In this document: piece after piece, positions 17,826 to 36,589 of the stretch
Position numbering within the stretch: position 1 is the stretch's first letter
Layout: each line of letters begins with the position of its first letter
Translations under genes and position numbers: made by a program
Notes under the pieces: generated by a model
Database searches by the model: none
Seen by the model: the letters and a program-made list of their open reading frames with translations, nothing else
What the model was told of the DNA's origin: nothing
Source: an uncultured Bacilli bacterium
GTDB taxonomy: Bacteria > Bacillota_I > Bacilli_A > ML615J-28 > CAG-698
Direction of reading: 5' to 3'
Length of the DNA: 64,000 bases
Assembly (NCBI GenBank): GCA_934096585.1
Contig: CAKOMG010000002.1
Span: forward strand, 199,770-263,769

Positions 17826-17837
17826 GTTGATATAATT
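17826..17837 (+). promoter_or_regulatory. extended -10 promoter (TGTTGATATAAT) for the methyltransferase gene
   Basis: A TGnTATAAT-type element ~25 nt upstream of the ATG at 17863. Confidence 0.45.
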
Positions 17838-17862
17838 GAACATATTTCAGAGATTAATAATT

Positions 17863-19083
17863 ATGCTTAAACAATCAATAAATGTTCATTTAACTAGAAA
17901 AGAAATAATTAAAAGTGGTAGTGTTTATACAAGTCCTGAATTAGTTAACTTAGTATTTAATCAAGCACAAGAATTTATAGATGGAAATACAGTTATAGGC
18001 GATTTTGGATCTGGATACGGAGCCTTTATAGAAAAATTTAAAAATTATGGTAAAAGATGTTTCGGAACTGAATGTGATGATTTAGCTTATAATTTATTAA
18101 AAAATGTTTATTTCGATATAGATATTTATCATGAAAACTCATTATTAAATGTAAATAGGGAAAAGTATTCTATATTGGAGCAAGACAAATTGATGATTAT
18201 CGGAAATCCTCCTTATAACGATACAACTAGTATATTCAAAAAGGGCGAAAAAGGTGAATTGATTTGTGATTCTGATTTAAAATCAAGAGATTTTGGCTTA
18301 TCTTTCTTAAAGGCTTATAACAAGCTAAAAGCAGATTACATTTGTGTCTTGCATCCTTTATCATATTTAATAAAAAAGCAAAATTTTACTTCTTTAGGTG
18401 ATTTTAAAAATAACTATAAATTGATTTCAGGGACTATCTTTTCAAGTAAAGAATTTGAGAGTATAAAGAAAAATAATTCAGATTTTCCTGTCGTTTCTGC
18501 TATATATAAAAGAGATGAAAAAGGAATGGATTATGATTTTATAAGAAAATTTAAATTTAAAATTTATAGAGAAAAAGGCGAATTCATATTAAGCAAAGTT
18601 TTAACTATTGATGGTTTGGTTGGCAAATACCCAACATCACATAAAATGAATAATAACCAAAATGAATCTAACTTAACTAAGCAAGATCAAAATAAAAATG
18701 ATTTGATACATTGCTTGCAATTTTATACACTAAGAGATATGAACTCGTTATTAAGAAATACTGGTTTTGTTGAAGGAGTAATTCCTAATGGAATTGACGT
18801 AACTTTAGAAAACTTATACCAATATTCATGGCTTTATTTTTTGAAAATTAATTTTAATCCAACGATAAATAAGTTTTTATATGGTAATTTATCTCCACTT
18901 TATTCAAATAAGATGAATGATTCAAAATTCAAATCTGAAGTTGTATATTATGCTTATTATCATTGTGATTTAGTTAAAAAATATATGAATTTAGAAAAGA
19001 TAAAATCATTATATGGACCATCTCCTGATCAATATAGTGCAATCTTTGATGAACTAGAAAATATATATAGCTTGTTTGTGTAA
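17863..19083 (+). CDS. gamma-class N6-adenine DNA methyltransferase (M.TaqI-like)
   Basis: Motif I VIGDFGSGYGAF upstream of motif IV IIGNPPYN. The track ORF starts at a TTG inside the -10 box; the ATG at 17863 is the likely start. Confidence 0.7.
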   Translation: MLKQSINVHLTRKEIIKSGSVYTSPELVNLVFNQAQEFIDGNTVIGDFGSGYGAFIEKFKNYGKRCFGTECDDLAYNLLKNVYFDIDIYHENSLLNVNREKYSILEQDKLMIIGNPPYNDTTSIFKKGEKGELICDSDLKSRDFGLSFLKAYNKLKADYICVLHPLSYLIKKQNFTSLGDFKNNYKLISGTIFSSKEFESIKKNNSDFPVVSAIYKRDEKGMDYDFIRKFKFKIYREKGEFILSKVLTIDGLVGKYPTSHKMNNNQNESNLTKQDQNKNDLIHCLQFYTLRDMNSLLRNTGFVEGVIPNGIDVTLENLYQYSWLYFLKINFNPTINKFLYGNLSPLYSNKMNDSKFKSEVVYYAYYHCDLVKKYMNLEKIKSLYGPSPDQYSAIFDELENIYSLFV

Positions 19084-19591: not shown

Positions 19592-20365
19592 TTAATTTTG
19601 TGCAAAAGCATTTTTAATTATTACACTTAAAATTTCTAAAATATCATGTTTATGTGTTGATGAACACATTCCAAAACAAATAAATAAATCAAAAATAATA
19701 GATTTCATAGAAACATCAAAGGTTAGAATTCCATATGGTGTTTTTGCTGCAGTATTATTAATAATATTAGCACTATTATCAAATGCATCAACTGGAATAA
19801 TTAAATATAACATTGGTTGAACTCCTGTTGCGTATTGTTGCTTTTGTATCATGATTTCTATCAGCAGTTTTGAGTCATTAGGCTTAGTAATAAATGTAGG
19901 TAATTTAGTTGAAGAAGATAAAAATTCTATATTGTTTATTAGTAATGGGGCTTCTTTTTTAACTTCGATAGAATATTGATCTTGTAAAAAAGTGTTATTA
20001 TTATGTATTTGATTATAAATATTAGATATTTCTTGCTCTGAAATAATATTATTTTTACACATAAAATAAGTGATTTCTGATAATTCATAAGGGTGCTTTC
20101 TTTTTTTATTTGCTCCGATAAAAACAAAATTGTCAGTGTTAAGCTGTGTATTTTTTTCATCATTTCCAATTATAGTGTCGTAACCTATCTGCCATTCTAA
20201 ATAAGATTTTTTTGAAATAATATTTGATTTTGGTGCAAAGCCACTACCAAAAGATTGAATGTCATCTCTTGTTTTGCATCTGAATTTTCCTTGGCTTGTT
20301 AAAGGTAAGTTAACGGTTAGTGTATTATCGTTATTATCATAAAACATTTCAGCTAATTTTCTCAT
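19592..20365 (-). CDS. hypothetical protein; candidate cognate restriction endonuclease (convergent with the MTase)
   Basis: 257-aa ORF with an RBS (aggaggaact) before the ATG. No clear nuclease motif. The call is contextual only. Confidence 0.35.
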   Translation of the reverse strand: MRKLAEMFYDNNDNTLTVNLPLTSQGKFRCKTRDDIQSFGSGFAPKSNIISKKSYLEWQIGYDTIIGNDEKNTQLNTDNFVFIGANKKRKHPYELSEITYFMCKNNIISEQEISNIYNQIHNNNTFLQDQYSIEVKKEAPLLINNIEFLSSSTKLPTFITKPNDSKLLIEIMIQKQQYATGVQPMLYLIIPVDAFDNSANIINNTAAKTPYGILTFDVSMKSIIFDLFICFGMCSSTHKHDILEILSVIIKNAFAQN

Positions 20366-21033
20366 TTTATAGTTCCTCCTATTATAAAGCTTTTATTAAA
20401 AATAATTCTTATGTTATATGTGTATTGATATTTTTATAAAAAATTTTAATTATAAATTTTTGCATTGCTTTAAATGAATCTTGCTTTCTGCAATATTTTA
20501 TTGTATTTAGAACGCTCATTAATAGATCAATTCTCATCTTTGCTTTAAATTTTTAAGTTTTTATAACTTGTATATAAGCTTTTTATATGTAATGAGAGTA
20601 ATTGTTTTTGCATTTAGATATTACTTAAAATCATTAAATTAATTGATGCTTTTAAAAAATTAAACTATTTCTTCGAATTTTTAAATATCGCAAATTTATT
20701 ATTAATGATATAAATTTAGTAAATGATTTAATTTATAATTATTTTTTGAAAGATATGTAATATTTTTTATAAAACTTTTAATTATATATTAACTTTCGAT
20801 TAATTATAACATTTTTTTATCAAAAATACTATTTGAGCATAATAATTATTATATGAAAGCGTTTCATCATTACTTAATAATTAAAAATATATTTTTAAAA
20901 AATAGAAAAAAGAAAGCTGTTTCGTATAAATATGTTATATTTTCAGCAGATAATAAATTTTTAAATTGTAATTTTCTTTCATATAATTATGTTAAAATAT
21001 ATAAATAGAATAAATATAGAAAGGAAATTAAAT

Positions 21034-21987
21034 ATGAATGTAATAGAACTAATTAATAATGCAAATAAAATTTCAAAAAATGATATAATTAAATTGCAAG
21101 ATATGTTTGAAAACCTTAAATATAAAAATGAAGATGATTTTGAAAAGTTAAAAAGGATAATTAGCAGTATAAGCAGTAATTATCTTGAGATTAATGAAGC
21201 TAACTTAGTAGAAATTAATTTATTAAAGGAATTACTTATAGATTATTTGTGTTATATGGAAAAAGTAGAAGACAATATGTTTATGTTGAAACTAATATGC
21301 TCATTAATTTGTTATTCAAAAGATTCATTAAATCAATTTAATGATCCAATACCTTTGGAATTTGCTATTGCTGAATGTTATTTAAATATTGCAAAAGTAT
21401 TTATTAATTATTATAATCATCATTTTATTATTTATGTTGATAGGCGTAATTATGAAAAAAAGTTGAATATATTGTATAATGACAATATGGCAATTGAATT
21501 ACTATTAGAAAGCATTAAATATGTTCCTAATTATGATGAAGCTAATTTGTTACTATCAATTATTTATTTGAATAATAATAACTATTATAAATCATATGAA
21601 TATTTTATGAATATTAAAGGCTATGGTGAAGAATTATTTGATTGTACAGGTAATAAATATCATTTTTATCATGAGCGTGATATAGATGGAGATTTATTTA
21701 ATAGTTTAGGATTTGTTTTGCAACAAAATGAATGTTTTTTTGAAGCCTTTCAAGTTTTTTACAAATCTTATTTGATTAATAAGCATAAAGAAATAGAAAA
21801 TAAAAATTCTAACATTCTTTATAATCTTGCTAGTTGTTATTTAGATGGAATTGGTGTTCATCAAAATTTAGATAAAGGAATTTATTTTTTAAACTTATAT
21901 ATTAAAAATCTAAAGTTAAATAATATAGATATTAATCAAACAGAAGATCATGATGGAATTATTGATAGATTTTATTTTAAAAAATAA
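21034..21987 (+). CDS. Sel1/TPR-like repeat protein
   Basis: YNLASCYLDGIGVHQNLDKGIYFL resembles a Sel1 repeat. RBS aaaggaaa precedes the ATG at 21034. Confidence 0.5.
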   Translation: MNVIELINNANKISKNDIIKLQDMFENLKYKNEDDFEKLKRIISSISSNYLEINEANLVEINLLKELLIDYLCYMEKVEDNMFMLKLICSLICYSKDSLNQFNDPIPLEFAIAECYLNIAKVFINYYNHHFIIYVDRRNYEKKLNILYNDNMAIELLLESIKYVPNYDEANLLLSIIYLNNNNYYKSYEYFMNIKGYGEELFDCTGNKYHFYHERDIDGDLFNSLGFVLQQNECFFEAFQVFYKSYLINKHKEIENKNSNILYNLASCYLDGIGVHQNLDKGIYFLNLYIKNLKLNNIDINQTEDHDGIIDRFYFKK

Positions 21988-22030
21988 TTTTAACGGTTGA
22001 AATAATTTAAAGTGATTTGATATAATATTT
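21987..22030 (+). promoter_or_regulatory. promoter cassette copy 1 (TTTTAACGGTTGAAA...TTGATATAATA)
   Basis: -35 TTGAAA at 21997-22002, 18-nt spacer, -10 TATAAT at 22021-22026. Near-identical to copies at 30371 and 31272. Confidence 0.6.
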
Positions 22031-22032
22031 GT

Positions 22033-22150
22033 AACCTTATGGTTAGCCCGCTCATATGGCTTAAAACAGGGAGTGTCGAAAGGAAGCAACATAGAAAACC
22101 GATTAGCATAAACTTTAGAGTAGGGTATTGCTTTCCACTCTATATTTTTA
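22033..22150 (+). ncRNA. candidate small ncRNA (~115 nt), contains a GUC-GAAA-GGAAGCAAC hairpin reminiscent of SRP RNA domain IV
   Basis: Strong promoter, a locally GC-rich structured sequence and the terminator agagtagg-loop-ccactct + TATTTTTATT. The only ORF here is a 69-aa frame of doubtful coding character. Confidence 0.45.
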
Positions 22151-22471
22151 TTATTAATAGCTTATGTTGCGATAAATTTAAAATAAAATACACTTTAAGT
22201 TTTTACAATTTAAATGAATTCAATTTTAATCTTTTTATAACAAAATGATTAAATGATTAATAATTAAAACAAATTATTATAAATGCTTAATTATAAAAAA
22301 TATAAAAATATAATAGTTCATAATTTAAAGATTTTTATTAAGTAAAGAGTAATAGTGATACTATATTTATAAACTTGTATGTTGCTATTACCTTTTTCAA
22401 TTATAACGATTTACAAATTGAATATCAATTTGATATAATAGAAATATAAACTAAGGAATAGGGAGGATATA

Positions 22472-25303
22472 ATGAAAAAAGAATTGAATAGAACAACTCT
22501 TGTTGAAATAGGGAATGAATTAAAATATCAAATTAAAACAAAAAAAGATATTTTTTCTGAAACAATCGTATTTGTGCCAGATAAAAGTGTTGAACAATGG
22601 TTTAAGGCTTTTTGGTTAAATACTGAAGATGATGTTTTAATGAATGTAAAATTTAAAACACTTAACGAAGGAATATTTGATATTTTTGATATAGCAAAAT
22701 ATCAAAATATTGTATCACCATTATCATTAAATTACTTCGTTCTTAAAGCACTTGTTTCACTAACAAAAGAAGAGCTAGGAGAAACAATAACTAATTATAT
22801 TTATAAAGAAAATAGTATTGATAGTACAAAATTGTATGATTTAAGTACTGAATTAACAAACTTATTTACTAACTATGAAAAAGATATGATAGAAATAACA
22901 GGTAATCAAGAAATAATTTATGATTATGTTATGAATGAATTAGATAATAATTCGTTATTTACAATTAAACATTTAATTGATCAAAATACTAAGTACAAAT
23001 ATTATGATAATACTATAAATATATTTGGGTATGATGAATTTGATCATTTGACTCAAAAGATTATTGATGATTTTTCAAAAGATAATAATGTTATTATTTA
23101 TTCTTTAAAAAAGAATGAGAATGTGAAACTACCTGATATAAAATTAGTTTCTGCACCATCAAAAGAAAAAGAAATAGTTAGTTTACATAGTACAATTTGT
23201 GAATTATTAAAAGATAAAACAAATACTTATAAAGACTTTTTAGTACTAGCTCCTAATATAACTGATTATGAAATCGAAATAGTTAGAGTGTTTAAACAAG
23301 ATAATATTAGTTTTCCAAATATTCCGTTTATAATTAACAATAAAAATAAAAAGTCTAGTGAATTAACAAAAGGGCTAAATGTTTTATTTAACATTTTAAA
23401 AAAAGGATTTTTTACTCGTTTTGACTTTATTGATTTAATAACTAACAAAATGATTATGGAATCAAGAAATATTGAAGAAGATAATATTAATAGTTTTAAA
23501 CAAATAATTGCTGAAGCGAATGTGTATAGAAATGATGATTGGAATTATGCTAAAAAAAGAATTGTTTTATCTAAATTAGTAGATTCTAATCAAATAGATG
23601 ATAATATAATTCAAGTTAAAAATCAAAAATATCTAACATATTCTAATATTTCATTAGATGATGAATCCAAAGTAAAATTCATAAAATTAGTAGATGATTT
23701 ATATGATTGGACTAAATTGTTTTCAAATAACCCTCTAATAACTGATGAAATAATAGACTCATTAATGCTTAACCTAAGCAAATGGTTTTCAATCCTTGAT
23801 CAAAATAATTGCGAAACTAATATTATCTTTAAAAAAATAATATCAGGATTAAATAATTGGAAAAAATATAATATATCTTGTGATAATATTCCTTTATTTA
23901 CTTTAATGTATATACTAATAAAAAGTAGTGAAAAGCAAGATATAAATTCATCTAATTTATTTATTGAAGGTATTTCGTTTATGGATTATTTGCCAAATGT
24001 AATTTTAGAATCAAAGTATGTATTTTTTATTGGAGCAAGTTCAAATTGTTTTCCTAATAAAGTGATTAAAAGTGAACTGGATTTAAGACAAGATTTTCAA
24101 AAAGATGATTATACTCATTTTGAATTGCAAGTATATAATTCTAGATGTTTGTTTAATATAAGTTTTGTTAATAAGAATTTAAAAACTGATGAAGATTTTT
24201 ATCCATCGTCTTTTGTATTAAAATTGTTAAATCATAAAGGCATAAAAAAATATGAAGATTTTCAAATTAATGTTCAATTAGATGAAAAAAGGGAATGGAA
24301 TCATTTGTATACAAAAAAAGAATTTAAAGATAAAGATTTTTATTACGGCTTATTCAATAATAAAGAAGAAGAGTATGTTCCAATTACTGTAACAAAAGAA
24401 GTAAATCATAAAGTCAAAGTGTCTGATATTGTTAGTTTCTTAAAAGAACCTTTACAATTTAAAGCAGAACAATTATTTAAACGTTATGATAATTTAAGCG
24501 AAAAGTTAGAAAATGAATATGAAGCATTATGTCTTAATGCATTAACTAAGTATATACTTGTAAGTAAGGTTGCAAATTATTTGTTGACAGATAGAAAGAA
24601 AGAATTAACAGATGACGAAAAAAATAAGTTATTCTTGCTATATGATTTAAAGCATGAACTACCTCAGATTAATGATGGTTTAAAGATAAATGCAATTGAC
24701 AATGTTATTAAAGAAAGTCAAGAAATATATGATCAAATAATGACAGATACTAGTGGGAATTATGAGTTAAAAGTATTAGATGATTTAAATATAAATGTTG
24801 ATAATGAAGTTATAACCATTACTTCAAAAGATACTATATGTATAAATAAAAATGATGATAGTAGAAATTATTATGAACTTAAAAAAATAAAAAAAGAAAC
24901 CAAAGAATACTTAAAATTATATATTTCTTCATTAATTGATATAGCACAAGAAAAAACAAATGTAAAATACAAAGTACAATTAATAAAGGAAGGTATTAAA
25001 TCTTTCGAAATTACACCAAATCAAGCACAAGAAATTATTAAAAAATTATTGATTTTAATGAATGACTATTCAAATAATAAGTATTTTGATATTGAAACAA
25101 TGGACAAATGTGATTATAAGGAATTAATAGATAATGCTCTTGATCCATCAGGAAATAAAGGGGCTTGGAAATATTTTAAAGATAAAAGACTATTTAATGA
25201 AAATAACTTAGGTTATAATGAAGATGATTTTGATAAAGAATTTAATGAAATGAAAAATATAATAAGCAATTTAATATTATTTTTAAAAAAGGGAGATGAA
25301 TAA
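22472..25303 (+). CDS. recC: exodeoxyribonuclease V gamma subunit RecC (compact, 943 aa)
   Basis: Immediately upstream of, and overlapping, recB. Size and position match a recC-recB-recD operon. No catalytic motifs expected. Confidence 0.6.
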   Translation: MKKELNRTTLVEIGNELKYQIKTKKDIFSETIVFVPDKSVEQWFKAFWLNTEDDVLMNVKFKTLNEGIFDIFDIAKYQNIVSPLSLNYFVLKALVSLTKEELGETITNYIYKENSIDSTKLYDLSTELTNLFTNYEKDMIEITGNQEIIYDYVMNELDNNSLFTIKHLIDQNTKYKYYDNTINIFGYDEFDHLTQKIIDDFSKDNNVIIYSLKKNENVKLPDIKLVSAPSKEKEIVSLHSTICELLKDKTNTYKDFLVLAPNITDYEIEIVRVFKQDNISFPNIPFIINNKNKKSSELTKGLNVLFNILKKGFFTRFDFIDLITNKMIMESRNIEEDNINSFKQIIAEANVYRNDDWNYAKKRIVLSKLVDSNQIDDNIIQVKNQKYLTYSNISLDDESKVKFIKLVDDLYDWTKLFSNNPLITDEIIDSLMLNLSKWFSILDQNNCETNIIFKKIISGLNNWKKYNISCDNIPLFTLMYILIKSSEKQDINSSNLFIEGISFMDYLPNVILESKYVFFIGASSNCFPNKVIKSELDLRQDFQKDDYTHFELQVYNSRCLFNISFVNKNLKTDEDFYPSSFVLKLLNHKGIKKYEDFQINVQLDEKREWNHLYTKKEFKDKDFYYGLFNNKEEEYVPITVTKEVNHKVKVSDIVSFLKEPLQFKAEQLFKRYDNLSEKLENEYEALCLNALTKYILVSKVANYLLTDRKKELTDDEKNKLFLLYDLKHELPQINDGLKINAIDNVIKESQEIYDQIMTDTSGNYELKVLDDLNINVDNEVITITSKDTICINKNDDSRNYYELKKIKKETKEYLKLYISSLIDIAQEKTNVKYKVQLIKEGIKSFEITPNQAQEIIKKLLILMNDYSNNKYFDIETMDKCDYKELIDNALDPSGNKGAWKYFKDKRLFNENNLGYNEDDFDKEFNEMKNIISNLILFLKKGDE

Positions 25304-28300
25304 AATGGATCAATTTAAGATTGAAAATTTTAAAGAAAATATTAATTATGTAATTGAAGCTTCAGCGGGAACGGGAAAAACATATAATATTATTGAAATA
25401 GTAAAAAAACTTCTTCAAGGTAAAAATATTAAATTAAATGATATTTTAATAGTAACATATACAGAAAAGGCAGCAGGTGAATTAAGAGATAGAATTAGAA
25501 AAGAATTACCAGAAGAAGATGTGGATAATGTACCAATTTTTACAATACACTCTTTTTGTCAAAGCGTAATTAAAGAATTTGGAATTTCTTCTAATTTGCC
25601 ATTAAATCTAAGTTTAGTTGGAAATGATGAATTAAATGAGTTTGCTGATAAATTTATTAGAGATTGTTCATTAATTGATGATATTGCTGAATGCCTTAAA
25701 CAAGGTATAGAAATTAATATAGATACTTTGAAAAACAAATTAGTTGATGGGGTTGATAAGTATTATTTGGATTCTAATTATAATGAAGATAGCGAAATAA
25801 TAGTTATAAAAGATTCTAATGAATTTTTGGATGAGATAAATAAATTAAAAAATAAAAAAGCTAATAAAAGTAATAATGATAAGATTAAAAAAAGTATGAT
25901 TCATTTTTTAAGTTGTAAATACTTAAAGCAACTATACATAGCTTGGCAAAAAGAAAAAGAACTAAATAAAAAAGAATCTTATAACGATATGATTAGATCT
26001 GTTAGAGAAGCAATATTAGATAACAAATGTTTATTGAAAAGCAAATTACAAGAAAAATATAAATATGCAATAATAGATGAATTTCAAGACACTAATCAAT
26101 TACAATTTGATATATTTAGTAATATATTCTTATGTGAAAACCATAATATAATAGTTGTTGGTGATCCAAAACAATCAATATATTCATTTCAAGGAGCAGA
26201 TGTTAATGTTTATTATAAAGCAGTTGATGAGATATTAAAAAAAGGTGGATTGAAATGCTCATTAAATACTAATTATCGCTCAACACAAAATATTGTTACA
26301 TCATGTAATCAATTGTTTAAACATTTTGATTTTGATGGTATGGATCAATTTGAAGAATCTATTTGCCCAACAGATGAAGTACATAAAAGAGAAGTATTAT
26401 TTGATGGTAAAGATATTGAATCATTTTGGATTGGAAATAAAGACCTAAATGATATTGAATACGCAAAAGCAGTAGTTAAAGAAATAATAATTTGTTGCGA
26501 AAAAGATAAAAATGGAAAAACTAGATTGCAATTAAAAAAAGGACCTGAAGAATTTAGAAATGTCAGTTTCAAAGATTTTGCTATTTTAGGAAGAACAAGA
26601 TTGGAAATGCAGGCAATTTGTAATATTTTTAAAAAAGTAGGTATTCCTTTTGTTAAGTATAAGGATTTAAAATTGTTTAATGGAAAAGAATGCGCCGATT
26701 GGAAAGCTATATTTGAAGCAATTGATTGCATTGATTTTACAGGTTCGAATAGAGCAATATTTAAAAAAGCCTTATTCACAAATTTCTTTGGACTTTCATT
26801 GCAAGAGATTGCTGATGAAAAATATAATACAGATGAAAGTGATCAAATGGTATTAATAAGTAAATGGAAATTGATAGCTTCAGAAAAACAATGGGAAGAT
26901 TTAATTGATGACATTTTAGTAAGTTCAAATATTATTGATAGGATGAGTTCTTTAACTAATATCGATTCTATTGGAATATATAAGCAAATTGGTAATTATT
27001 GCGTTGATTATTTAACAAGTAACCATTCCATTAATGATTTAATTAATAAACTAAATGATCTAAGTCAAGGTGAAGAAGATACTGAAGATGGAAATGTTGT
27101 AGAAAGAAGTACAAATTTTGATGCTATACAACTGCTTACAATGCATACATCAAAGGGACTTCAATTTCCGGTAGTTATAGCTGTTGGTGGATTTAAACAG
27201 TTTCCTCCTGAAAAAGGAATAGTAACATATCATAAAGAAAATAAAAAGATATTAGATTTTCAAATTAATGAAGAATTTAAAAAAGAACGTTTAGAAGAAA
27301 CTAAAAGATTATTTTATGTAGCATATACTAGAGCAGAATATATTTTAATGTTTCCTTGTGTAAGCAAATTTATAACAAATAATGATAAAAACTTTATTAT
27401 AGATTCTATTAATCAATATGAAAATAATAATAAATTTAAAAGAATTGATGCTTCAATATTTAATTATAAGGAACTAAAAGAAAAAGTTCAAAATATATTA
27501 AATAAACCAGCTGAAGAATCAAAAGAAGAACGAGTTAAACAAGAAGAAGTACTAAAAACAATTATTAAAGAAAGTAATTCAAAAAAGGTTTACAAACATT
27601 CATATTCTTCTTTATCCCATTCTGGAGTAATTGATGAAGATGACAATAAAGAAGGAGTAGTAATTGGAGGATTATCAAATTTCGATACTAAAGTTGTTTC
27701 TGATAATCCATATTTAAACGAAAGTAATAATGCAATTCAAATGCCAAGTGATTATCCTAAAGGTTCAAACATAGGAACATGTTTACATGAAATTCTTGAA
27801 AAAATAGATTTCACAAATACTAATAATTTGATTTATATTGTAAAAAATAGTTTTAGTAAAAATGGGTTTAAAGATAATGATGAAAAATGGAATGACTATA
27901 CTAAAAAAATAATTGATAATGTACTAAATGCTAAACTTCCGATTATAAAAGGGAATAACATAACTAATGACTATTTATTATTAAGCGAAATACCAAATAA
28001 TTGTAAAAAAAATGAAGTTGAGTTTTCATATAATTTATTAAATGAAAAACTAAAGAATTATTGTAATGGCTTTATTGATTTACTTTTTAAGAATGGTGAA
28101 TATTATTCCATTGTTGACTGGAAATCAGATGGATTAAGTGATGACTTTATTTCATTTTCATCACAAAAAGATTTGCAAGAACATGTTAGTGATTGCTACT
28201 CTATCCAAAGAGTAATATACTCTTATTCATTAATTCAATGGTTAAAATGTTATTATAAAAATGAAACGGAAGAGGAATTGTTTAACAATCATTTTGGTGG

Positions 28301-28430
28301 AATCTATTATATTTTTGTGAGAGGATGCAATGAAGGGACAGGAAATGGAGTATATTGTCAGACATGGAATAATTATAAAGAATTAGAAAATTCATTTAAT
28401 GAAATTATTAATTCTAGAATATGGAGGTAA
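25296..28430 (+). CDS. recB: exodeoxyribonuclease V beta subunit RecB (SF1 helicase + C-terminal PD-(D/E)xK nuclease)
   Basis: EASAGTGKTY Walker A. IIDEFQDTN. VVGDPKQSIY. TMHTSKGLQF. YVAYTRA. C-terminal GFIDLLFKNGEYYSIVDWKSD nuclease motif. Confidence 0.8.
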   Translation: MNKMDQFKIENFKENINYVIEASAGTGKTYNIIEIVKKLLQGKNIKLNDILIVTYTEKAAGELRDRIRKELPEEDVDNVPIFTIHSFCQSVIKEFGISSNLPLNLSLVGNDELNEFADKFIRDCSLIDDIAECLKQGIEINIDTLKNKLVDGVDKYYLDSNYNEDSEIIVIKDSNEFLDEINKLKNKKANKSNNDKIKKSMIHFLSCKYLKQLYIAWQKEKELNKKESYNDMIRSVREAILDNKCLLKSKLQEKYKYAIIDEFQDTNQLQFDIFSNIFLCENHNIIVVGDPKQSIYSFQGADVNVYYKAVDEILKKGGLKCSLNTNYRSTQNIVTSCNQLFKHFDFDGMDQFEESICPTDEVHKREVLFDGKDIESFWIGNKDLNDIEYAKAVVKEIIICCEKDKNGKTRLQLKKGPEEFRNVSFKDFAILGRTRLEMQAICNIFKKVGIPFVKYKDLKLFNGKECADWKAIFEAIDCIDFTGSNRAIFKKALFTNFFGLSLQEIADEKYNTDESDQMVLISKWKLIASEKQWEDLIDDILVSSNIIDRMSSLTNIDSIGIYKQIGNYCVDYLTSNHSINDLINKLNDLSQGEEDTEDGNVVERSTNFDAIQLLTMHTSKGLQFPVVIAVGGFKQFPPEKGIVTYHKENKKILDFQINEEFKKERLEETKRLFYVAYTRAEYILMFPCVSKFITNNDKNFIIDSINQYENNNKFKRIDASIFNYKELKEKVQNILNKPAEESKEERVKQEEVLKTIIKESNSKKVYKHSYSSLSHSGVIDEDDNKEGVVIGGLSNFDTKVVSDNPYLNESNNAIQMPSDYPKGSNIGTCLHEILEKIDFTNTNNLIYIVKNSFSKNGFKDNDEKWNDYTKKIIDNVLNAKLPIIKGNNITNDYLLLSEIPNNCKKNEVEFSYNLLNEKLKNYCNGFIDLLFKNGEYYSIVDWKSDGLSDDFISFSSQKDLQEHVSDCYSIQRVIYSYSLIQWLKCYYKNETEEELFNNHFGGIYYIFVRGCNEGTGNGVYCQTWNNYKELENSFNEIINSRIWR

Positions 28431-30381
28431 TATGAACGAATATAATAATTTAAAAGAACTTGTTATAAAATATAAACTAATGTCTCCTATTTGGAAATAT
28501 GTTTTAGAGTTAATAGAAGAAGAATTAGACTTCAATGAAAATGAACGAGAGTATGTTTTGATATTGTTTATTATCTATTTTTGTTTAATAGACGATGGTA
28601 ATATTTGTATGTTACTTAATAAAAATATATTAAGTGAAAAGTGGAATGAAAAAGTAGAATCAACAATCATAATGCAAAGAAACAAGATGATTGTTGATGA
28701 CACTGAATTAAATACTATCAAAAAATTAACAAACGTAGCTATAAATGATTATTTATCTTTAATTAATAATGAGCATTTAAATAAAGTAATTGGTAAAAAT
28801 AAAGAATTTGAAATAGAAGATGGATGGTTATATTTAAGAAAATATAATATTGCAAGAAAAGGAATAATTAATTCTATTAAAAGATTATTTGATAAAGAAT
28901 ATATAGGAAACCCCCTTTATAATTATAAAGATTATTGTATTAAAAATGTTAATAATGAAAATAACAAAGAATTTAGTTTATCTAAAGGACAAGAGAATGC
29001 GGTAAACAAAGGATTTAATAAGAATTTAATTATTACTGGTGGTCCTGGGACAGGTAAGACGACTTCAATCTTATTTCTTTTAATTAACATTCTTACTTCA
29101 AATCTTGAAAGTAATGTTTATTTAATTGCACCAAGTGGAAAAGCTGCCAGTAGAATGAAAGAGAGTATAATAAAGGGATTATCATTAGTAAATGAAGAGT
29201 TTAAAAATAAAAATTATGATTTAATTGATAAAATAAATAAACTAGAGGAATCTACTATTCATAGATTATTATCTTATGATTATGAAACAAATAGTTTTTT
29301 ATACAATAAATATCATCCATTTAATCAAGATTCAATATTTGTAATTGATGAAGCTAGTATGATTGATATATGTTTATTTAATTCCCTATTAGAAGCAGTC
29401 CCTGATAATGCAAGAATATTTATTATGGGAGACAAAAATCAGTTACCTTCAGTAGAGTGTGGTGCAGTATTTGGTGAATTCCTAAAAATGAATGAATTAA
29501 AAGATAATATTATTGAACTAGATGAATCAATAAGGTTTAAAAAAGGAACAAAGATATATGAATTTGCGCAAGCAATTAATCAAGGAAATACTCTACCTAT
29601 ATCCAATGATGAGTTCAAGGAATTGAAAGACTTTACAATATATGAAGAAAATAATAATAAACCAATTTATTTCTTTAACTATAATGATTCAAAACAAGAT
29701 TTTGATAGTGTAATAAAAAAATGGGGTAATAAATATTATAAAAACCTTCAAATGAAATGTTCAAATCTTGATTATAACAATAGTGAATCTTTTAATGAAC
29801 TTTTTAGTTTAATAGAAGAATCAAAAATACTATGTGCTGAAAATGATGGTATTTATGGAGTTAAACAAATCAATAATATAATAAAAAAGAACTATGTTAA
29901 CAATTCAATAATTTCATATAATGGTCACTATCCTGGAGAAATTATGATGATTAATAAAAATAATAAAACATTAGATCTTTATAATGGTGATTCAGGAATC
30001 CTAGTTACTTTTGAAAATGACAATACTTTATATTTTATGATTAAAAAATCATCTACATTAGTAAATACAGATGAAAAGAAAAATAACAAAGTATTTAAAA
30101 AGGAACAGTATGTATTTTATCCATTAAGATTAATATCGTTTAATGAAATTGATTTAGCTTATGCAATTACTATTCATAAATCTCAAGGATCAGATTATAA
30201 AAATATTCTAGTGATATTACCTAAACAAAAAGGACATCCTTTACTTAATAGACAAATTGTTTATACTGCTATTACAAGAACAAAAGGAAATACATATATA
30301 ATTTCAAATCTTAATCGTTTAGAAGAAGCAAAAGACAATTTAATTATTCGCGATACTAACATAGCTAGTTTTAACGGTTGA
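28399..30381 (+). CDS. recD: exodeoxyribonuclease V alpha subunit RecD
   Basis: ITGGPGTGKTT. VIDEASMID. AITIHKSQGSDY. TAITRTKG. Overlaps the recB end by 32 nt. Confidence 0.8.
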   Translation: MKLLILEYGGNMNEYNNLKELVIKYKLMSPIWKYVLELIEEELDFNENEREYVLILFIIYFCLIDDGNICMLLNKNILSEKWNEKVESTIIMQRNKMIVDDTELNTIKKLTNVAINDYLSLINNEHLNKVIGKNKEFEIEDGWLYLRKYNIARKGIINSIKRLFDKEYIGNPLYNYKDYCIKNVNNENNKEFSLSKGQENAVNKGFNKNLIITGGPGTGKTTSILFLLINILTSNLESNVYLIAPSGKAASRMKESIIKGLSLVNEEFKNKNYDLIDKINKLEESTIHRLLSYDYETNSFLYNKYHPFNQDSIFVIDEASMIDICLFNSLLEAVPDNARIFIMGDKNQLPSVECGAVFGEFLKMNELKDNIIELDESIRFKKGTKIYEFAQAINQGNTLPISNDEFKELKDFTIYEENNNKPIYFFNYNDSKQDFDSVIKKWGNKYYKNLQMKCSNLDYNNSESFNELFSLIEESKILCAENDGIYGVKQINNIIKKNYVNNSIISYNGHYPGEIMMINKNNKTLDLYNGDSGILVTFENDNTLYFMIKKSSTLVNTDEKKNNKVFKKEQYVFYPLRLISFNEIDLAYAITIHKSQGSDYKNILVILPKQKGHPLLNRQIVYTAITRTKGNTYIISNLNRLEEAKDNLIIRDTNIASFNG

Positions 30382-30408
30382 AAATTAGAAAGTGAATTTG
30401 ATATAATA
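30371..30408 (+). promoter_or_regulatory. promoter cassette copy 2
   Basis: -35 TTGAAA at 30378-30383 (overlaps the recD stop), 18-nt spacer, TGATATAAT at 30399-30407. Confidence 0.6.
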
Positions 30409-30413
30409 TTAGT

Positions 30414-30630
30414 GTAATTAAATAATCATAATTAAATATACCTTCCTAAATTTAACAAGGCTGATATACCCTTGTAATAAAGTATATCTAAAAATGAATA
30501 ATAAAATAATCCATAAAGAGATGGCGAGAGACAAGCTCAATGACCCATCAGCAACTTACAGTAAAATGCAAAGTGCTAAAGCTTGAACGATGGAATCAGT
30601 GAAAGGCTTCCATCATAGAAGCCTTTTTTG
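30414..30630 (+). ncRNA. candidate ~215-nt structured ncRNA (class unknown) or an unusually long terminated leader
   Basis: No ORF. Locally GC-enriched with multiple hairpins (acaagg-loop-ccttgt; gatgg-loop-ccatc). Ends in the intrinsic terminator aggcttc-catcata-gaagcct + TTTTTT. Confidence 0.45.
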
Positions 30631-30670
30631 ATTATTAACATATAATTAGTTATAAAAGGAAAAATTGTTT

Positions 30671-31240
30671 ATGAAATGTAAATTTGTTTTGCAAAGTTGT
30701 AATATACTTAAAAAAAATAGTAAAAAAAGAAAATTGATTTATGTGAATGACTATTTTGTTTTTAATTTAACAAAAACATATAAAGACATTATTGACGAAT
30801 ATATAGATGAAGGTATGATTATTATTAAAAAAAGTTGTTCATATAAGTTAGTAGAAAAAATACTTTTAGAAAATAAATATATCTACCGGCCAAGCTTATA
30901 CTATTTAAAATACAATAGAAAGTATAGTTTAAGAAGCATTGTTTATATGATTAAAAAACCAAATATTTTGAATGATAAACTATTTATAGAAAAAATAAAA
31001 GTATTATTAAAACAATCAGGTTGTAAATCAATACTATTTATAAATAAAACTCAGGAAGTTTATATTGATTTAAAAAAGAATAAAAATAAATGTAAAGAAA
31101 CAAATAAAAAAAGACTTTATAAAAAATATAAAGGCGTTCTTATACCATGCTATGGAATTTATCTATATAGAAATAATCATTATTCAATAGATAGTGGTGA
31201 ATTTCAAGCAGGTTTTAGATATAGGTATACACGTTTTTAA
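30671..31240 (+). CDS. hypothetical K-rich protein
   Basis: RBS aaaaggaaaaa precedes the ATG at 30671; the track starts at an upstream TTG. Confidence 0.45.
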   Translation: MKCKFVLQSCNILKKNSKKRKLIYVNDYFVFNLTKTYKDIIDEYIDEGMIIIKKSCSYKLVEKILLENKYIYRPSLYYLKYNRKYSLRSIVYMIKKPNILNDKLFIEKIKVLLKQSGCKSILFINKTQEVYIDLKKNKNKCKETNKKRLYKKYKGVLIPCYGIYLYRNNHYSIDSGEFQAGFRYRYTRF

Positions 31241-31271
31241 CTAAGTAAAAGGTAAAATAAGGTGACAGAGT

Positions 31272-31310
31272 TTTAACGGTTGAAAAAAAATTAGTGAATT
31301 TGATATAATA
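31272..31310 (+). promoter_or_regulatory. promoter cassette copy 3
   Basis: -35 TTGAAA at 31280-31285, 18-nt spacer, TGATATAAT. Drives the FtsH-like operon. Confidence 0.6.
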
Positions 31311-31335
31311 GTATTATAAAAACAGGAGAAAAAAT

Positions 31336-32577
31336 ATGGAGCAATTTAATAAAATTATAGGATATGAAAATGTAAAAAAAGAATTAATTACAATTAGTGA
31401 TTACTTTAATAAAACGGATTTATGTAGACAACACAATGTTAAGTTACCTAAAGGAATTCTTCTTTATGGGGATTCAGGATGTGGTAAAACATTATTTTTA
31501 AAAGAATTTTGTAAGGTAACTAATAAATATGTAATAAATGTTCAAGGATGCAGTGATGATATAATTAAAGAAATTAGCGATGATTTTAAAGAAGCACGTG
31601 TTATAGGAAATACTGTAATAATTATAGATGAGTTAGACTTACTAATAAACAAAGATTATAGAATAGTTAGATTGTTGCAATCATATTTGGATGGATTTGA
31701 AGATTATGATGGAATTTTTGTAGTAGCAACAACTAATAATGTTGGAAAAATAGAAAATTCATTATTAAGAGAGGGGAGATTTGATAGAAAAATTAAAGTA
31801 GATTTACCAAATGAAAAAACAAGAAAGGAATTAATTGATTATTACATAAGACAATTAGGTCTTGATGTAAATGTTGATTCTGAATATTTATCAAAAATCA
31901 TGGTCGATAGATCTTGCAGTTTTATTCAAACAATTATTAATGATTGTTATTTGAGATTTAATCAAAACATTACAACTGATAATATTGATTATTCATATAA
32001 TGTTATTGCATATGGAAACACAAATGATTATATAAAAAATGATATAAATAAAACAATAGCCATTCATGAAGCAGGACATATTGCCTTAACATATAAAAAT
32101 AGAAAGTATTTTACTTTTTATAAAGCATCAATTAACACAAATTCAAATAAAATAAATGGAGTTTCAAAACTTTATGATGCAAAAGAACAAAATGATGATT
32201 TAGAAGAGTATATCGCAAAAATTGAAATTGATATTGCAGGTTTTTTAACAACATACAATTTACTAAAAATAAAAGATGGAGGTTCTTATGGAGATTTAAA
32301 AGATGCTATTTATAATGCAAGATTTTTAATCAATAGTTTAGGATACAAAATGCCAAGAAATGTATTGAGAGAATATGACCAATTTGAGGGTAGAAATGAA
32401 ACAGAAATTAACTGTCATCGCAATGAAATTTTCGTGAGAAAATTGATGAAAAAATGTGAAAGAAATGTAAAAAAATACATTATTAAAAATAAAAAGAAAA
32501 TATATGATATAGCAAATCAATTGTATGAAAGAGGATCAATTAAACAAAATGAAGTAATGGAAATAATGGAGAGGTAA
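31336..32577 (+). CDS. soluble FtsH-like protease: AAA+ ATPase fused to an M41-type HExxH metalloprotease. No transmembrane N-terminus
   Basis: Walker A GDSGCGKT. Walker B IIIDELD. Sensor-1 VVATTNN. REGRFDRKI. Protease motif TIAIHEAGHIAL. Confidence 0.7.
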   Translation: MEQFNKIIGYENVKKELITISDYFNKTDLCRQHNVKLPKGILLYGDSGCGKTLFLKEFCKVTNKYVINVQGCSDDIIKEISDDFKEARVIGNTVIIIDELDLLINKDYRIVRLLQSYLDGFEDYDGIFVVATTNNVGKIENSLLREGRFDRKIKVDLPNEKTRKELIDYYIRQLGLDVNVDSEYLSKIMVDRSCSFIQTIINDCYLRFNQNITTDNIDYSYNVIAYGNTNDYIKNDINKTIAIHEAGHIALTYKNRKYFTFYKASINTNSNKINGVSKLYDAKEQNDDLEEYIAKIEIDIAGFLTTYNLLKIKDGGSYGDLKDAIYNARFLINSLGYKMPRNVLREYDQFEGRNETEINCHRNEIFVRKLMKKCERNVKKYIIKNKKKIYDIANQLYERGSIKQNEVMEIMER

Positions 32578-32580
32578 AAA

Positions 32581-34257
32581 ATGAAAATAAAAAGAAAAAA
32601 TAAAGAAAAAGAAGAATTTATAGAAAACTATAAGAACTATTTAATAAATAATTGGGAAATGATTAAGGATTATGTAACTAATCGTACTATGAATATTAAA
32701 GTGAATAAGGAATGCTGGCCTGAAGATTTTCTACCAAATAATTATTTTTATGAAAAGAAAGGGTTCAATGAGATTACAAAATATAATAAAATACCAATAT
32801 ATCAATTGCTTTATTTAAATGGTATGGATGATATGTTTCAAATCGATAAATATGGAGCTATATTTTATTTAAGTGCTATAAAAAAGATTAATAATTCATC
32901 AAAATTGATTCTTGAGCCACTTGATAATAGAAAAAAATTATATGATGATTATGATTATAATTTGTTTATTAATTATAATAGTTATAATAGTTTATTTATG
33001 GGTTTTAGTGAAGAAGAAATCAAAAATAGAATAACAGATGGTTTAATAATTAAAGTGATTGACAATCATTTAGAATTTGAAAAGTATTTTAAATTAAATG
33101 ATTATGATCTTGGCGAATTACAGACAACAGAATTGCCTAGAGTAGCATCTAGATTAATAAAAAATAATAAATTTAATGACTTATCTATTTTAGAAAAAGA
33201 TGAAATCAATAAAATAAATTATTATGATTTTTTAAAAAAAATTTATAATTATGTTTCAAATATTGATGAACAAGAATTGAATGATATATATAAGAAGAGT
33301 TTATCTTTATTTTGTGATATTTGTTTGATTGCTTTTATTTTTATGTCTAAAATTGTTTATTTAAATAAAGTTAATGGCAAAACAAGAAAGTTTAATTATA
33401 AACTTTTCGATGATGAGAATAATGAAATTCTTTCAAAAACAGTTGATAATATTAGTCCATTTTTTATAAAAAATGAGATAATTAATTATGAATATAAAAG
33501 TAAACTAAAATTAGAAGGATTAAATTTTGAAATACAAGAAATTATAGATTATAAACAAAGAATATTAGATGATATGCTAGAAGAATATGTTAATTTGTTA
33601 GGAATGGATGGTGCAGTAAATAAAGCAAAAACATGGGATAATAGAGTAATACATTCGATTGCACATTCATTGATTTATCATTGCAAGGATCCTGAAACTC
33701 GATACAAGGCTATTGATGTATCTATAGAGTTGGTTAAACTTAATATTGATAACTTTATAAACAAAACTATATTTGGATGTTCTAGAGTTGATTATTATTT
33801 TATTTTAGAAGATATCACATTGATAATTGATGTATTATTAGACTCTAACATTCTTTCAACGCATAACTGTAGAAAGTATTTTAATATACCTAATGATTAT
33901 CATTATGATAATTTGTTAGCATTTGAATATTTGAAAAAGGGATATAAGCTGGTTTTACGATTCGGCGTAAATTATAAATTAATGTATTTATATGGATTAA
34001 TTTTATACAAAGAAATTTTTACAAAGAATACTAAAGAAGAAGGTTTACAAATCATAAAACAATATAATGAGCATTTAGAACATGACTTTGATGTCGCTTT
34101 AGCAAGGTATTGGCATTATTTGAAAGATGAAAAAAACTATGATAATGAACAATCGATTCAAGCATATATAGATAATAAATTAGAAAAGGTTGAAAAAATT
34201 AAACATGATTATTACGCCAATTGTAGTCAATGGAAAAATAGTAGCTCAAATTTATGA
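32581..34257 (+). CDS. hypothetical 558-aa protein, co-operonic with the FtsH-like gene (3-nt gap)
   Basis: ORF with RBS. No recognisable motif. Confidence 0.5.
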   Translation: MKIKRKNKEKEEFIENYKNYLINNWEMIKDYVTNRTMNIKVNKECWPEDFLPNNYFYEKKGFNEITKYNKIPIYQLLYLNGMDDMFQIDKYGAIFYLSAIKKINNSSKLILEPLDNRKKLYDDYDYNLFINYNSYNSLFMGFSEEEIKNRITDGLIIKVIDNHLEFEKYFKLNDYDLGELQTTELPRVASRLIKNNKFNDLSILEKDEINKINYYDFLKKIYNYVSNIDEQELNDIYKKSLSLFCDICLIAFIFMSKIVYLNKVNGKTRKFNYKLFDDENNEILSKTVDNISPFFIKNEIINYEYKSKLKLEGLNFEIQEIIDYKQRILDDMLEEYVNLLGMDGAVNKAKTWDNRVIHSIAHSLIYHCKDPETRYKAIDVSIELVKLNIDNFINKTIFGCSRVDYYFILEDITLIIDVLLDSNILSTHNCRKYFNIPNDYHYDNLLAFEYLKKGYKLVLRFGVNYKLMYLYGLILYKEIFTKNTKEEGLQIIKQYNEHLEHDFDVALARYWHYLKDEKNYDNEQSIQAYIDNKLEKVEKIKHDYYANCSQWKNSSSNL

Positions 34258-34961: not shown

Positions 34962-35774
34962 ATGAGAAAAAATTTGAATGATTATTTTGAAAGTGTGGAA
35001 AGAAAAATTGGCTATGAGTTTGAAAATGAAGATTTGTTAAGACAAGCATTTACTAGAAAATCTTATAGTTCAATTTATGGAACTGAAAATAATGAAGTAT
35101 TGGAATTTATTGGTGATAAAGTAATTGATTTGATTGTAGTTAAAGTTATTTCTGATTATTTTGGATTCTATAAATCAGAATCAGCTTATTATGATGAAGA
35201 TAATGATTTAAATGAGTTTTGTATTGTTGCTAATAAAGATGAATCTGATTTTACAGAAATAAAAAAAGAATTAGTATCAAATGAAAACTTGTCAAAAATA
35301 ATTGATAAATTAGATTTTGCAAAATTAATGTGGATGGGAGATAACGACATCAATAATCATATTGAAAAAGAGCAAAAAGTTAAAGCTGATTTATTTGAAG
35401 CAATAGTTGGTGCAATAACCATAGATTGTGATTGGAATATGGAAATATTGGAAGAGGTTATAAAAAGATTATTATATATTAATAATACACTGAAAAATGT
35501 TTCTACGGAAGAAGAAAGACCAGAAAAATTTACTGTTGAAAAAGCAATTAACACATTAAAAGAGCTTGCTGAACAAGGAAAATGTTCTGAACCTATATAT
35601 GAAATATCAGATGAACAAATATTTCAAGATGGAGAATATTGGTGGTCTTGTGATTGCACTGTTAATAGTTGGCATATTTCAGAAAGTGCACTTTCTAAAA
35701 GTAAAAAAGGTGCTAAAAAGTATACTGCTTATTTAGTTCTATGCACTAGATATAATCTAGATGTCGAGGAATAA
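34962..35774 (+). CDS. class-1 RNase III paralogue (catalytic domain with ~45-aa insertion, plus C-terminal dsRBD)
   Basis: RKIGYEFENEDLLRQAFTRKSYS. NEVLEFIGDKVID (E/D catalytic). ADLFEAIVGAITID (D/E catalytic). dsRBD-like SKKGAKKYTAYLVL. Confidence 0.75.
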   Translation: MRKNLNDYFESVERKIGYEFENEDLLRQAFTRKSYSSIYGTENNEVLEFIGDKVIDLIVVKVISDYFGFYKSESAYYDEDNDLNEFCIVANKDESDFTEIKKELVSNENLSKIIDKLDFAKLMWMGDNDINNHIEKEQKVKADLFEAIVGAITIDCDWNMEILEEVIKRLLYINNTLKNVSTEEERPEKFTVEKAINTLKELAEQGKCSEPIYEISDEQIFQDGEYWWSCDCTVNSWHISESALSKSKKGAKKYTAYLVLCTRYNLDVEE

Positions 35775-36360: not shown

Positions 36361-36589
36361 TTAATCCACGACTAGGTTCTTGGAAAAAAGATGTTTATGA
36401 GTTAATAGATAAAAAATGGGTGAGTATTTTAATCTGCAAAATATTTATGACTATGAGAATTATCTTAAAAATTTATATCCATCAAATAATAACATAAGGC
36501 CTAAAATTAGACAAGTTCTACAGCAACTTCGAGATATAGGACTTATAAAATTTCTTGGATCAGGGTCTTATAAAAAATTAATAAAATAA
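36361..36589 (+). pseudogene. frameshifted gene remnant (about 75 codons across two frames)
   Basis: Frame A reads NPRLGSWKKDVYELIDKKWVSIL. Frame B continues NLQNIYDYENYLKNLYPSNNNIRPKIRQVLQQLRDIGLIKFLGSGSYKKLIK*. No start codon or RBS. Confidence 0.4.

Follow-up and report, generated by a model that had tools for sequence, protein, structure and literature searches.

The window analysed here is a stretch of 64,000 nucleotides (nt; 24.3% GC) from contig CAKOMG010000002.1 of an uncultured Bacilli bacterium of the gut (lineage CAG-698), and the regions of interest lie on either side of its recC, recB and recD genes (recCBD). The predicted transcript at 30.4-30.63 kb, at the downstream end of recD (transcript 2), is on the strength of its sequence a riboswitch for S-adenosylmethionine (SAM) of the SAM-I (S-box) type, although it is a variant within the clan that lacks the P4 helix and not a canonical SAM-I; binding of SAM is predicted. 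It would be transcribed from one of several related promoters, another of which would drive a short non-coding RNA upstream of recC (transcript 1). An earlier note on this DNA had offered two readings of transcript 2, a 6S-like RNA or a terminated riboswitch-like leader that it could match to no class. The latter idea was correct, and the class is SAM-I.

A cmscan search of the whole window against Rfam, at gathering thresholds, gave a single match, to RF00162 at 30508-30596 (56.9 bits against a threshold of 44.4, E = 1.7e-10, model positions 1-108). The 6S RNA family RF00013, whose hallmark is an extended hairpin of about 180 nt with a central bubble, gave no match in the window at its gathering threshold, the region being explained by RF00162. 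Rfam therefore supplies a family for one of the two candidate RNAs (30.4-30.63 kb) and none for the other (22.03-22.15 kb). The elements of the riboswitch unit are the following:

30414-30507, + strand: 94-nt leader 5' of the aptamer, with 3-7% variation between strains, absent from the related element L023
30508-30596, + strand: SAM-I (S-box) aptamer with P1, P2 (containing a K-turn), P3 and a potential L2/J3-4 pseudoknot; P4 is absent
30589-30629, + strand: expression platform, comprising the antiterminator pairing and an intrinsic terminator at 30601-30629
30671-31240, + strand: ORF189, an open reading frame (ORF) for an orphan protein of 189 amino acids, with ribosome-binding site AAGGA at 30656-30660

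The alignment to RF00162 is good in P1, in P2 and its internal loop, in P3 and at the junctions. Four pairs are possible between CAAG in L2 (30532-30535) and CUUG in J3/4 (30582-30585); both are present in all sequences and never vary, so that this pseudoknot yields no covariation. The 3' strand of P1 (GAUGGAA, 30589-30595) is complementary to UUCCAUC (30608-30614), which lies within the 5' arm and loop of the terminator, a 10-bp stem followed by U6 and the only terminator called by the scan in 12 kb. A platform in which the 3' strand of P1 competes with the terminator is the standard OFF design of S-box riboswitches.

RF00162 was also matched in strains L017 and L021 and in L023 (51-56 bits); the diverged element on contigs L023 and L024 scores 55.1 bits and is likewise P4-less. 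The substitutions that distinguish the aptamers of L017 and L021 sit in loops, and the aptamer diverges between strains by 0-1.1%, against 3-7% in the 94-nt leader upstream of it. Between the window and L023 the aptamer is about 96% identical, though the ORF189 protein is only 39% identical. The terminator stem shows two compensatory pairs across the strains and L023. In L017 a G-C pair is replaced by A-U, and a C-G pair is gained. The terminator of L023 has another sequence but obeys the same terminator/antiterminator logic; it supplies the second compensatory pair, with the antiterminator complementarity kept (GAUGGAAA/UUUCCGUC).

Several observations weigh against this assignment. Canonical SAM-I has a P4 hairpin, and all 17 of its model positions are deleted both in the window and in nine of nine relatives; the four-way junction characteristic of SAM-I is thereby missing, and the core is a three-way junction. 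The gene under the riboswitch, ORF189, is not a recognisable sulfur or methionine gene, Pfam, NCBIfam, PADLOC and structure searches having given no match that would place it in methionine, cysteine or SAM metabolism or transport. Because the window and strain L004 are nearly identical from about 30495 onward, part of the aptamer conservation between those two reflects recent shared ancestry. Finally, all transcription start sites and 3' ends at this locus are predictions.

The P4-less form is nevertheless recurrent. A metagenome scan with the P4-less junction GTGCTAAAGCTTGAACGATGGAA returned five unrelated contigs of 27-43% GC, and four of the five exceed the Rfam threshold with the same deletion. 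These five contigs, L025-L029, come from unrelated organisms and have the P4-less junction GUGCUAAAGCUUGAACGAUGGAA in common. Downstream of the five P4-less relatives lie S components of energy-coupling factor (ECF) transporters in two cases, and unrelated proteins without a Pfam family in the other three; ECF S components are typical riboswitch cargo. A scan of viral contigs for the aptamer junction gave no match. Ten aptamers were available for covariation analysis, aligned to a covariance model (CM) built here; in this alignment, which is thus fitted to the model, 85.7% of cells are paired and both sides have changed in 8 of 26 pairs. P2a is 100% paired in the ten aptamers, with three of its five pairs covarying, and covariation across the recurrent P4-less aptamers is strong in P2 and P3. 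The overall covariation score is 0.303, against 0.098 in shuffles (reached in 0 of 500) and at most 0.071 when the pairing partners were slid. Recurrence in unrelated contigs, together with this covariation, argues that the aptamer is a functional-looking variant and not a wreck.

The opposite possibility, that the riboswitch is a decaying relic in which loss of P4 abolished activity and left a constitutive terminator for recCBD, would account for the complete absence of those 17 positions and for a downstream gene that is no known member of an S-box regulon. It could also draw on strain L021, in which an IS200/IS605-type insertion of about 716 nt (18172-18888 of that contig, its Y1 transposase ORFs split) sits precisely between terminator and ORF189 ribosome-binding site, at a point equivalent to 30631-30635 of the window, and so parts riboswitch from gene. 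A relic is hard to reconcile, however, with an identical P4-less junction in five unrelated contigs (27-43% GC), with covarying P2 and P3 and two ECF S components downstream; with an aptamer that has stayed about 96% identical in L023 while the protein encoded behind it fell to 39%; or with antiterminator complementarity that persists despite sequence change. We regard decay as highly improbable. A full-text search of the literature found no description of a P4-less SAM-I, nor of defence genes controlled by a SAM riboswitch, although this is absence of evidence only.

A proposed promoter family before four transcription units

The 15-mer TTTTAACGGTTGAAA occurs exactly three times in the window, always on the + strand, at 21988, 30369 and 31271. 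It is one of just two 15-mers with at least three copies, the other being an A-rich low-complexity word. The pattern TTTTAACGGTTGAAA-N15-TGATATAAT gives three exact matches where 0.00 are expected (none in 100 dinucleotide-preserving shuffles), which bears out the thrice-occurring promoter cassette of the earlier note, its coordinates having been off by 1-2 nt. Each of the three copies is laid out as a 9-nt block TTTTAACGG abutting a -35 hexamer TTGAAA, a spacer of 18 nt and an extended -10 element TGATATAAT. A diverged fourth member precedes recC:

21988-22032, + strand: copy 1, with the TTTTAACGG block, -35 at 21997-22002, 18-nt spacer and extended -10 TGATATAAT at 22018-22026
22401-22446, + strand: recC promoter, a diverged fourth cassette with TTATAACGA, -35 TTTACA at 22410-22415, 18-nt spacer and TGATATAAT at 22431-22439
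30369-30413, + strand: copy 2, with -35 at 30378-30383 and extended -10 at 30399-30407
31271-31315, + strand: copy 3, with -35 at 31280-31285 and extended -10 at 31301-31309

Copy 1 begins directly after the stop codon of a TPR/Sel1-like gene (20989-21987). Copy 2 overlaps the end of recD, whose TGA stop (30379-30381) falls within its -35, and copy 3 stands before an FtsH-like operon opening with an AAA + peptidase-M41 gene (31336-32577); both placements agree with what had been proposed. The description of copies 1 and 2 as leading into ORF-less, GC-enriched segments that flank recCBD and end in a hairpin and U-tract also stands. The spacer box is another matter: it had been taken as a fixed AAGTGA-type motif, but reads AGTGATTTGA in copy 1 and AGTGAATTTGA in copies 2 and 3, and the AGTGA within it varies between strains, copy 2 having AGTAA in L004, L006, L010 and L017.

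In a generic scan for sigma-70-type sites between 20.9 and 32.7 kb, the three cassettes and the recC promoter were the four best TG-extended sites (11/12 matches plus TG); one minus-strand site also reached 11/12, but without TG. The window holds some 50 TGnTAWAAT sites, and TAACGRTT is found at the -35 of these four alone. The cassettes resemble one another only between about -47 and about +5. Over 51 nt, copies 2 and 3 share 84% identity; copy 1 is identical to each of them at 34-35 of 46 positions (74-76%); and the recC promoter, which can be written TTATAACGATTTACA-N18-TATAAT, is 71% identical to copy 1 over 42 nt (22399-22440). The cassettes are kept in all strain variants. The related element L023 has its own duplicated cassette, CCATATCGATTTACAAA, in two copies, one before the riboswitch and one before the protease unit; the second is 80% identical to the recC promoter of the window over 56 nt, and the core common to window and L023 is TAWCGR-TTKAMA. 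Within the 64 kb and about 17 kb of strain-specific DNA the cassette block is seen solely at this locus, and scans of viral and JGI metagenome contigs gave no match to it. Around the cassettes there are no terminal inverted repeats or target-site duplications, the flanks holding only AT-rich chance repeats. The repeat is probably a small family of homologous, near-consensus promoters of housekeeping type, reused before four unrelated transcription units within 9.3 kb. With its protein-contact blocks constant and its spacers specific to each copy, the family looks like the product of selection on function more than of very recent duplication.

The -35 hexamer has changed in concert. At the three cassettes it is TTGAAA in most strains and TTTACA at all three in L021 and L022, so that the same two substitutions are found at sites up to 9.3 kb apart (9527, 17907 and 19532 in L021). 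The recC promoter likewise has TTTACA as its -35 in all strains, as do both cassettes of L023, for which reason TTGAAA is probably the derived state, acquired three times over. Short-tract gene conversion is a possible cause of the concerted change, as is co-adaptation to a factor that reads the block, and the family offers a clean small case for studies of homogenisation or of regulator co-evolution. The change to TTTACA in L021 also abolishes the TGA stop of recD and lengthens RecD by two codons.

It may be asked whether the block is mainly an operator, the palindrome TTTTAAC-G-GTTGAAA serving as the binding site of a dimeric regulator under which transcript 1, the riboswitch unit and the protease operon would form a local regulon. 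This 15-bp imperfect palindrome forms 6 of 7 pairs, and the exactly conserved block matches its boundaries; spacers that vary among copies are expected under selection on contact sites but not under recent duplication; the -35 is altered in concert at all three copies between strains; and the block is confined to this locus in the 64 kb and the roughly 17 kb of strain-specific sequence. The symmetry, however, does not survive comparison well. The block of L021 and L022, TTTTAACGGTTTACA, forms just 5 of the 7 pairs, and that of L023, CCATATCGATTTACA, is palindromic in another register; the post-hoc probability of such a palindrome is only about 0.005; no helix-turn-helix regulator was found in the neighbourhood, save a 57-residue DpnI_C fragment; and the viral and JGI metagenome scans supplied no matches from which a regulon could be defined. 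An operator as the main function of the block seems to us unlikely, if worth keeping in mind, and the promoter family remains the preferred account. The recC promoter spacer itself holds a 17-bp palindrome, AAATTGA-ATA-TCAATTT (22415-22431), one arm of which is mutated in L017 and L021, and which is probably not a conserved operator. The 57-amino-acid ORF (36416-36589) consists only of the DpnI_C 'Dam-replacing' winged-helix domain (E = 1.7e-20) and is probably a fragment of a restriction enzyme gene.

The candidate small RNA upstream of recC

Copy 1 is followed by a GC-enriched segment with the following features:

22033-22150, + strand: transcript 1, a candidate small RNA (sRNA) of about 115 nt, non-coding, a GC island, with no Rfam family
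22116-22149, + strand: terminal hairpin of transcript 1 (22116-22142; 8 bp, a bulge and a 10-nt loop) followed by AUAUUUUU

The entire 118 nt have a GC content of 38.1%, which ranks among the top 1.7% of windows (the aptamer of transcript 2 has 40.4%), while in the 253-nt spacer that separates the hairpin from the recC promoter it is 14.2%. Divergence from three strains is 0.8, 1.7 and 4.2%, compared with 15-16% in the adjacent spacer, 3.7-6.1% in recC and up to 13% in the TPR gene; transcript 1 is thus 4-19 times less diverged than the spacer beside it. A 5' domain of 36 nt (22033-22068) and the terminal stem are invariant in five strains. The 3' arm of the hairpin can pair alternatively with 22070-22089 in a 14-bp long-range helix (-11.5 kcal/mol), and the substitutions of L021 and the strain indel all fall outside both alternative helices. 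The only long ORF across the segment, of 69 amino acids (22039-22248), was rejected as coding, as was a minus-strand ORF at 21916-22092, both being frameshifted by a 1-nt deletion at 22076 in L004 and L017. A separate promoter precedes recC, 260 nt downstream, so that transcript 1 is not merely the recC leader.

Other results count against a discrete functional RNA. The terminal hairpin has a free energy of about -9 kcal/mol, fails the standard criteria for a terminator (a stem rich in GC and no shorter than 5 bp, a loop of 3-8 nt, and a run of U immediately downstream) and was not called by the scan; of the two terminators originally proposed to end these transcripts, that at 30601-30629 is called and that at 22116-22142 is not. 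The minimum free energy (MFE) of transcript 1 is no better than that of shuffled sequences (z = +0.85; about 0 for the 3' domain). Outside the species, neither the fetched loci nor the viral contigs yielded a homologue, and transcript 1 shows no covariation. Its conservation depends on three strain comparisons that are not independent. As to targets, duplex energies with 46 translation-initiation regions placed the neighbouring genes at or below average, and the longest perfect complementarity in the window, 14 nt and AU-rich, is within the range of shuffles. A 12-nt match at 22375-22386 lies in the hypervariable spacer, and overall there is no target signal. On balance we put the chances that transcript 1 is a lineage-restricted sRNA at about even; it is a reasonable lineage-specific candidate in a poorly known gut lineage.

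Transcript 1 had also been suggested to be the 4.5S RNA of the signal recognition particle (SRP), with transcript 2 as a 6S-like RNA. Both transcripts are indeed GC-enriched, and GUGUCGAAAGGAAGCAAC at 22073-22090, read as GUGUC-GAAA-GGAAGCAAC, superficially resembles the GGAAGCAGC motif of SRP domain IV. But no more than two pairs close the GAAA 'tetraloop', and the motif contains a 1-nt indel between strains: L004 and L017 lack the U of GUGUCGAAAGG, a loss that SRP domain IV would not tolerate. No SRP match was obtained even at E<=10 with permissive filters, the Rfam search of 501 nt under these settings returning nothing but a chance match to a snoRNA (E = 2.3); no helix joins the 5' and 3' ends, and the fold is no more stable than shuffles. 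Nothing similar was seen outside the species, whereas SRP RNA is, to our knowledge, universal, and transcript 2 is accounted for by its 56.9-bit, covarying SAM-I match. This pair of identities is almost certainly wrong. A closer competitor would make transcript 1 the 5' part of a long leader from a second recCBD promoter, with the mutually exclusive helices acting as an attenuator that meters read-through into recC. The weak, uncalled terminal hairpin (-9 kcal/mol) makes read-through likely; its 3' arm, CCACUCU, has two possible partners, the local 22116-22124 and the more distant 22070-22089; and recC follows on the same strand after 320 nt, behind a promoter related to the same cassette. The intervening 253 nt, however, at 14% GC, 15-16% divergence and with indels, are unconstrained as a leader; both helices precede the same U-tract, so that neither is an obvious anti-terminator; and the relatives of RecC have no such leader. 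An attenuator is in our estimation a minority possibility, yet a real one. Rather doubtful, too, is a functionless remnant, such as the leader of a lost gene, kept for the terminator it gives the TPR gene and for its promoter. The lack of a structure signal, of homologues and of above-chance targets is what such a remnant would show, and besides the 5' 36 nt the terminator stem is the most invariant part; but those 36 nt have no role in termination and still do not vary among five strains whose TPR genes diverge by up to 13%, and the GC enrichment spans all 118 nt.

Genes of the locus and their variation between strains

The protein-coding genes that adjoin these elements, apart from ORF189, are as follows; the first five were confirmed by Pfam and NCBIfam:

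20989-21987, + strand: TPR/Sel1-like gene, upstream of copy 1
22472-25303, + strand: recC
25296-28430, + strand: recB
28399-30381, + strand: recD
31336-32577, + strand: gene for a soluble FtsH-like AAA + peptidase M41 protein, with Walker A and HEAGH motifs and without a membrane N-terminus
32581-34257, + strand: ORF558, an orphan of 558 amino acids paired with the AAA-M41 gene

ORF189 is a real gene: it is a 190-codon ORF in a genome of 24% GC, and it has the motifs IYVNDYFVF, RSIVY and YRNNHxSIxxGEF in common with the protein P0041. Searches of 5.8 billion and 1.84 billion sequences, with exhaustive HMMER, found as homologues only its own cluster and P0041 (39% identity). It has no family in Pfam, NCBIfam or PADLOC. 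Its AlphaFold model (pLDDT 60, core 70-88) has no significant neighbour in the PDB, Foldseek returning nothing below E = 0.03. A match of the model to a phage SAM lyase (E = 0.04, TM 0.24-0.32) was set aside as generic ferredoxin-like similarity. The AAA-M41 protein aligns to positions 160-598 of the FtsH profile, and its only relatives in viral contigs are 26-27% identical and in giant-virus bins. PADLOC gave just partial AAA-domain matches to IetA for the protease/ORF558 pair, and in the searches run ORF558 had no homologue outside the species beyond a partial one on L023/L024. Two small ORFs past ORF558 there is an RNase III-like protein (270 amino acids, 34962-35774), followed by a 186-residue HExxH protein.

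On L023 and L024 the order is integrase, a 166-amino-acid ORF, the SAM-I aptamer, the ORF189 homologue, a 69-amino-acid ORF, the AAA-M41 gene (61% amino-acid identity to that of the window) and the start of the ORF558 homologue. In two diverged contexts, then, a SAM riboswitch accompanies an orphan protein and a soluble FtsH-like protease and not genes of sulfur metabolism, which hints at an unrecognised SAM-dependent process. The module is next to an integrase in one genome and, in the window, lies in a region rich in defence islands beside recBCD. One might go further and suppose that the P4-less riboswitch is the sensor of a portable ORF189/protease/ORF558 module, induced when SAM collapses (for instance under a phage SAM lyase), and hence an infection sensor for a defence- or addiction-type module with transcript 1 as a co-regulated sRNA. 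The evidence for this supports linkage, not function, and we consider the proposal a long shot.

The following working of the locus is envisaged. Copy 2 would initiate a leader of about 216 nt, the 3' half of which is the P4-less riboswitch. With SAM bound, P1 would form and the terminator at 30601-30629 would halt transcription; without SAM, the 3' strand of P1 would pair with the 5' arm of the terminator and polymerase would enter ORF189, and possibly the next operon. The scan called no terminator between ORF189 and copy 3, so that transcripts passing the riboswitch could contribute to expression of the protease operon, for which copy 3 would give SAM-independent expression of the soluble FtsH-like protease and ORF558. 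Nor was a terminator called between recD and the riboswitch leader, so that the SAM-controlled hairpin probably also ends recCBD transcripts, where they do not run on past it. If it is so shared, read-through from a DNA-repair operon would be SAM-dependent. Copy 1 would yield a non-coding RNA of about 115 nt that stops at a modest hairpin and U-tract, perhaps with some read-through towards recC.

Identical or near-identical proteins are encoded on metagenome contigs from pig gut and from human (Hadza) gut. The nearest relatives of RecC and RecB are only about 40% identical, and scanning reference genomes for RecB turned up just two loci, at about 39% identity. In the nearest RecC homologues (at most 40% identical) recC adjoins unrelated genes, with no leader, cassette or homologue of transcript 1. 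Homology between strains ends just upstream of the TPR gene (about 20965), and beyond that point lies a defence island whose content varies by strain: Thoeris ThsA/ThsB, PycTM and AbiU2 in L017 (1-8500), C5 methyltransferases and AbiU2 in L021 (1-8500), and in the window an Eco57I-like methylase (17836-19083) and an R.Pab1-like endonuclease (19592-20365, minus strand). The window and L004 differ by 3-5% across recCBD, with just 6 differences in the approximately 1.7 kb from the aptamer onward (30495-32181). The pattern points to a boundary of recombination, or else to the riboswitch/ORF189/protease module having swept recently.

Comparison with known systems

Closely similar DNA of promoter size before non-homologous genes in one genome recalls the putative mobile promoters described in a study of promoter reuse (Matus-Garcia, Nijveen and van Passel 2012, PMC3575422), for which the criterion was at least 80% identity over at least 50 nt and among which SAM riboswitches figure as reused upstream elements. 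Copies 2 and 3 reach that threshold (84% over 51 nt), whereas copy 1 (74-76%) and the recC copy (71% over 42 nt) miss it. Unlike putative mobile promoters, all copies at this locus lie within 9.3 kb, only the protein-contact blocks are conserved, and any signature of mobility is absent. The mobile promoter module of the earlier note therefore holds as to the similarity of copies 2 and 3, but the marks of a transposable unit are lacking. A promoter-bearing mobile element of the Correia type, or other miniature inverted-repeat transposable element (MITE), was rejected for want of terminal inverted repeats or a target-site duplication.

Transcript 1 is like the bacterial small SRP RNA (RF00169) in its size of about 115 nt and in having GAAA followed by GGAAGCA; it differs in lacking a CM match, helix 8 and helix 5, in the indel within the motif, and in conservation confined to one species. 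For annotation, the upshot is that one supposed sRNA is an S-box riboswitch and that the SRP and 6S ideas should be dropped, leaving elements of mostly known kinds. In Listeria, terminated SAM riboswitches (SreA and SreB) reportedly act in trans as sRNAs. A strongly transcribed switch at the present locus would likewise yield, when SAM is present, a discrete terminated RNA of about 200 nt, resembling the 'sRNA' first proposed here; this is a lead only, since unlike SreA and SreB there is no evidence here for a target in trans.

The closest likeness is to RF00162 (clan CL00012): the CM score, P1, P2 with its K-turn, P3, the junction nucleotides, the OFF platform built on the 3' strand of P1 and the setting in a low-GC gut bacterium all agree. 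The departures from canonical RF00162 are that P4 is gone, that the gene controlled is an orphan and not a methionine, cysteine or SAM gene, and that the leader doubles as the 3' end of recCBD. In SAM-IV and SAM-I/IV the SAM-I core is known to tolerate rearranged peripheral helices, including a differently placed P4; these classes carry a replacement hairpin 3' of P1 and a second pseudoknot. In contrast to them, the region 3' of P1 is unconserved among the ten aptamers beyond the terminator logic, and RF00162 is the best clan member by cmscan. A natural and recurrent P4-less SAM-I bears on what the peripheral helices contribute to SAM binding and to switching.

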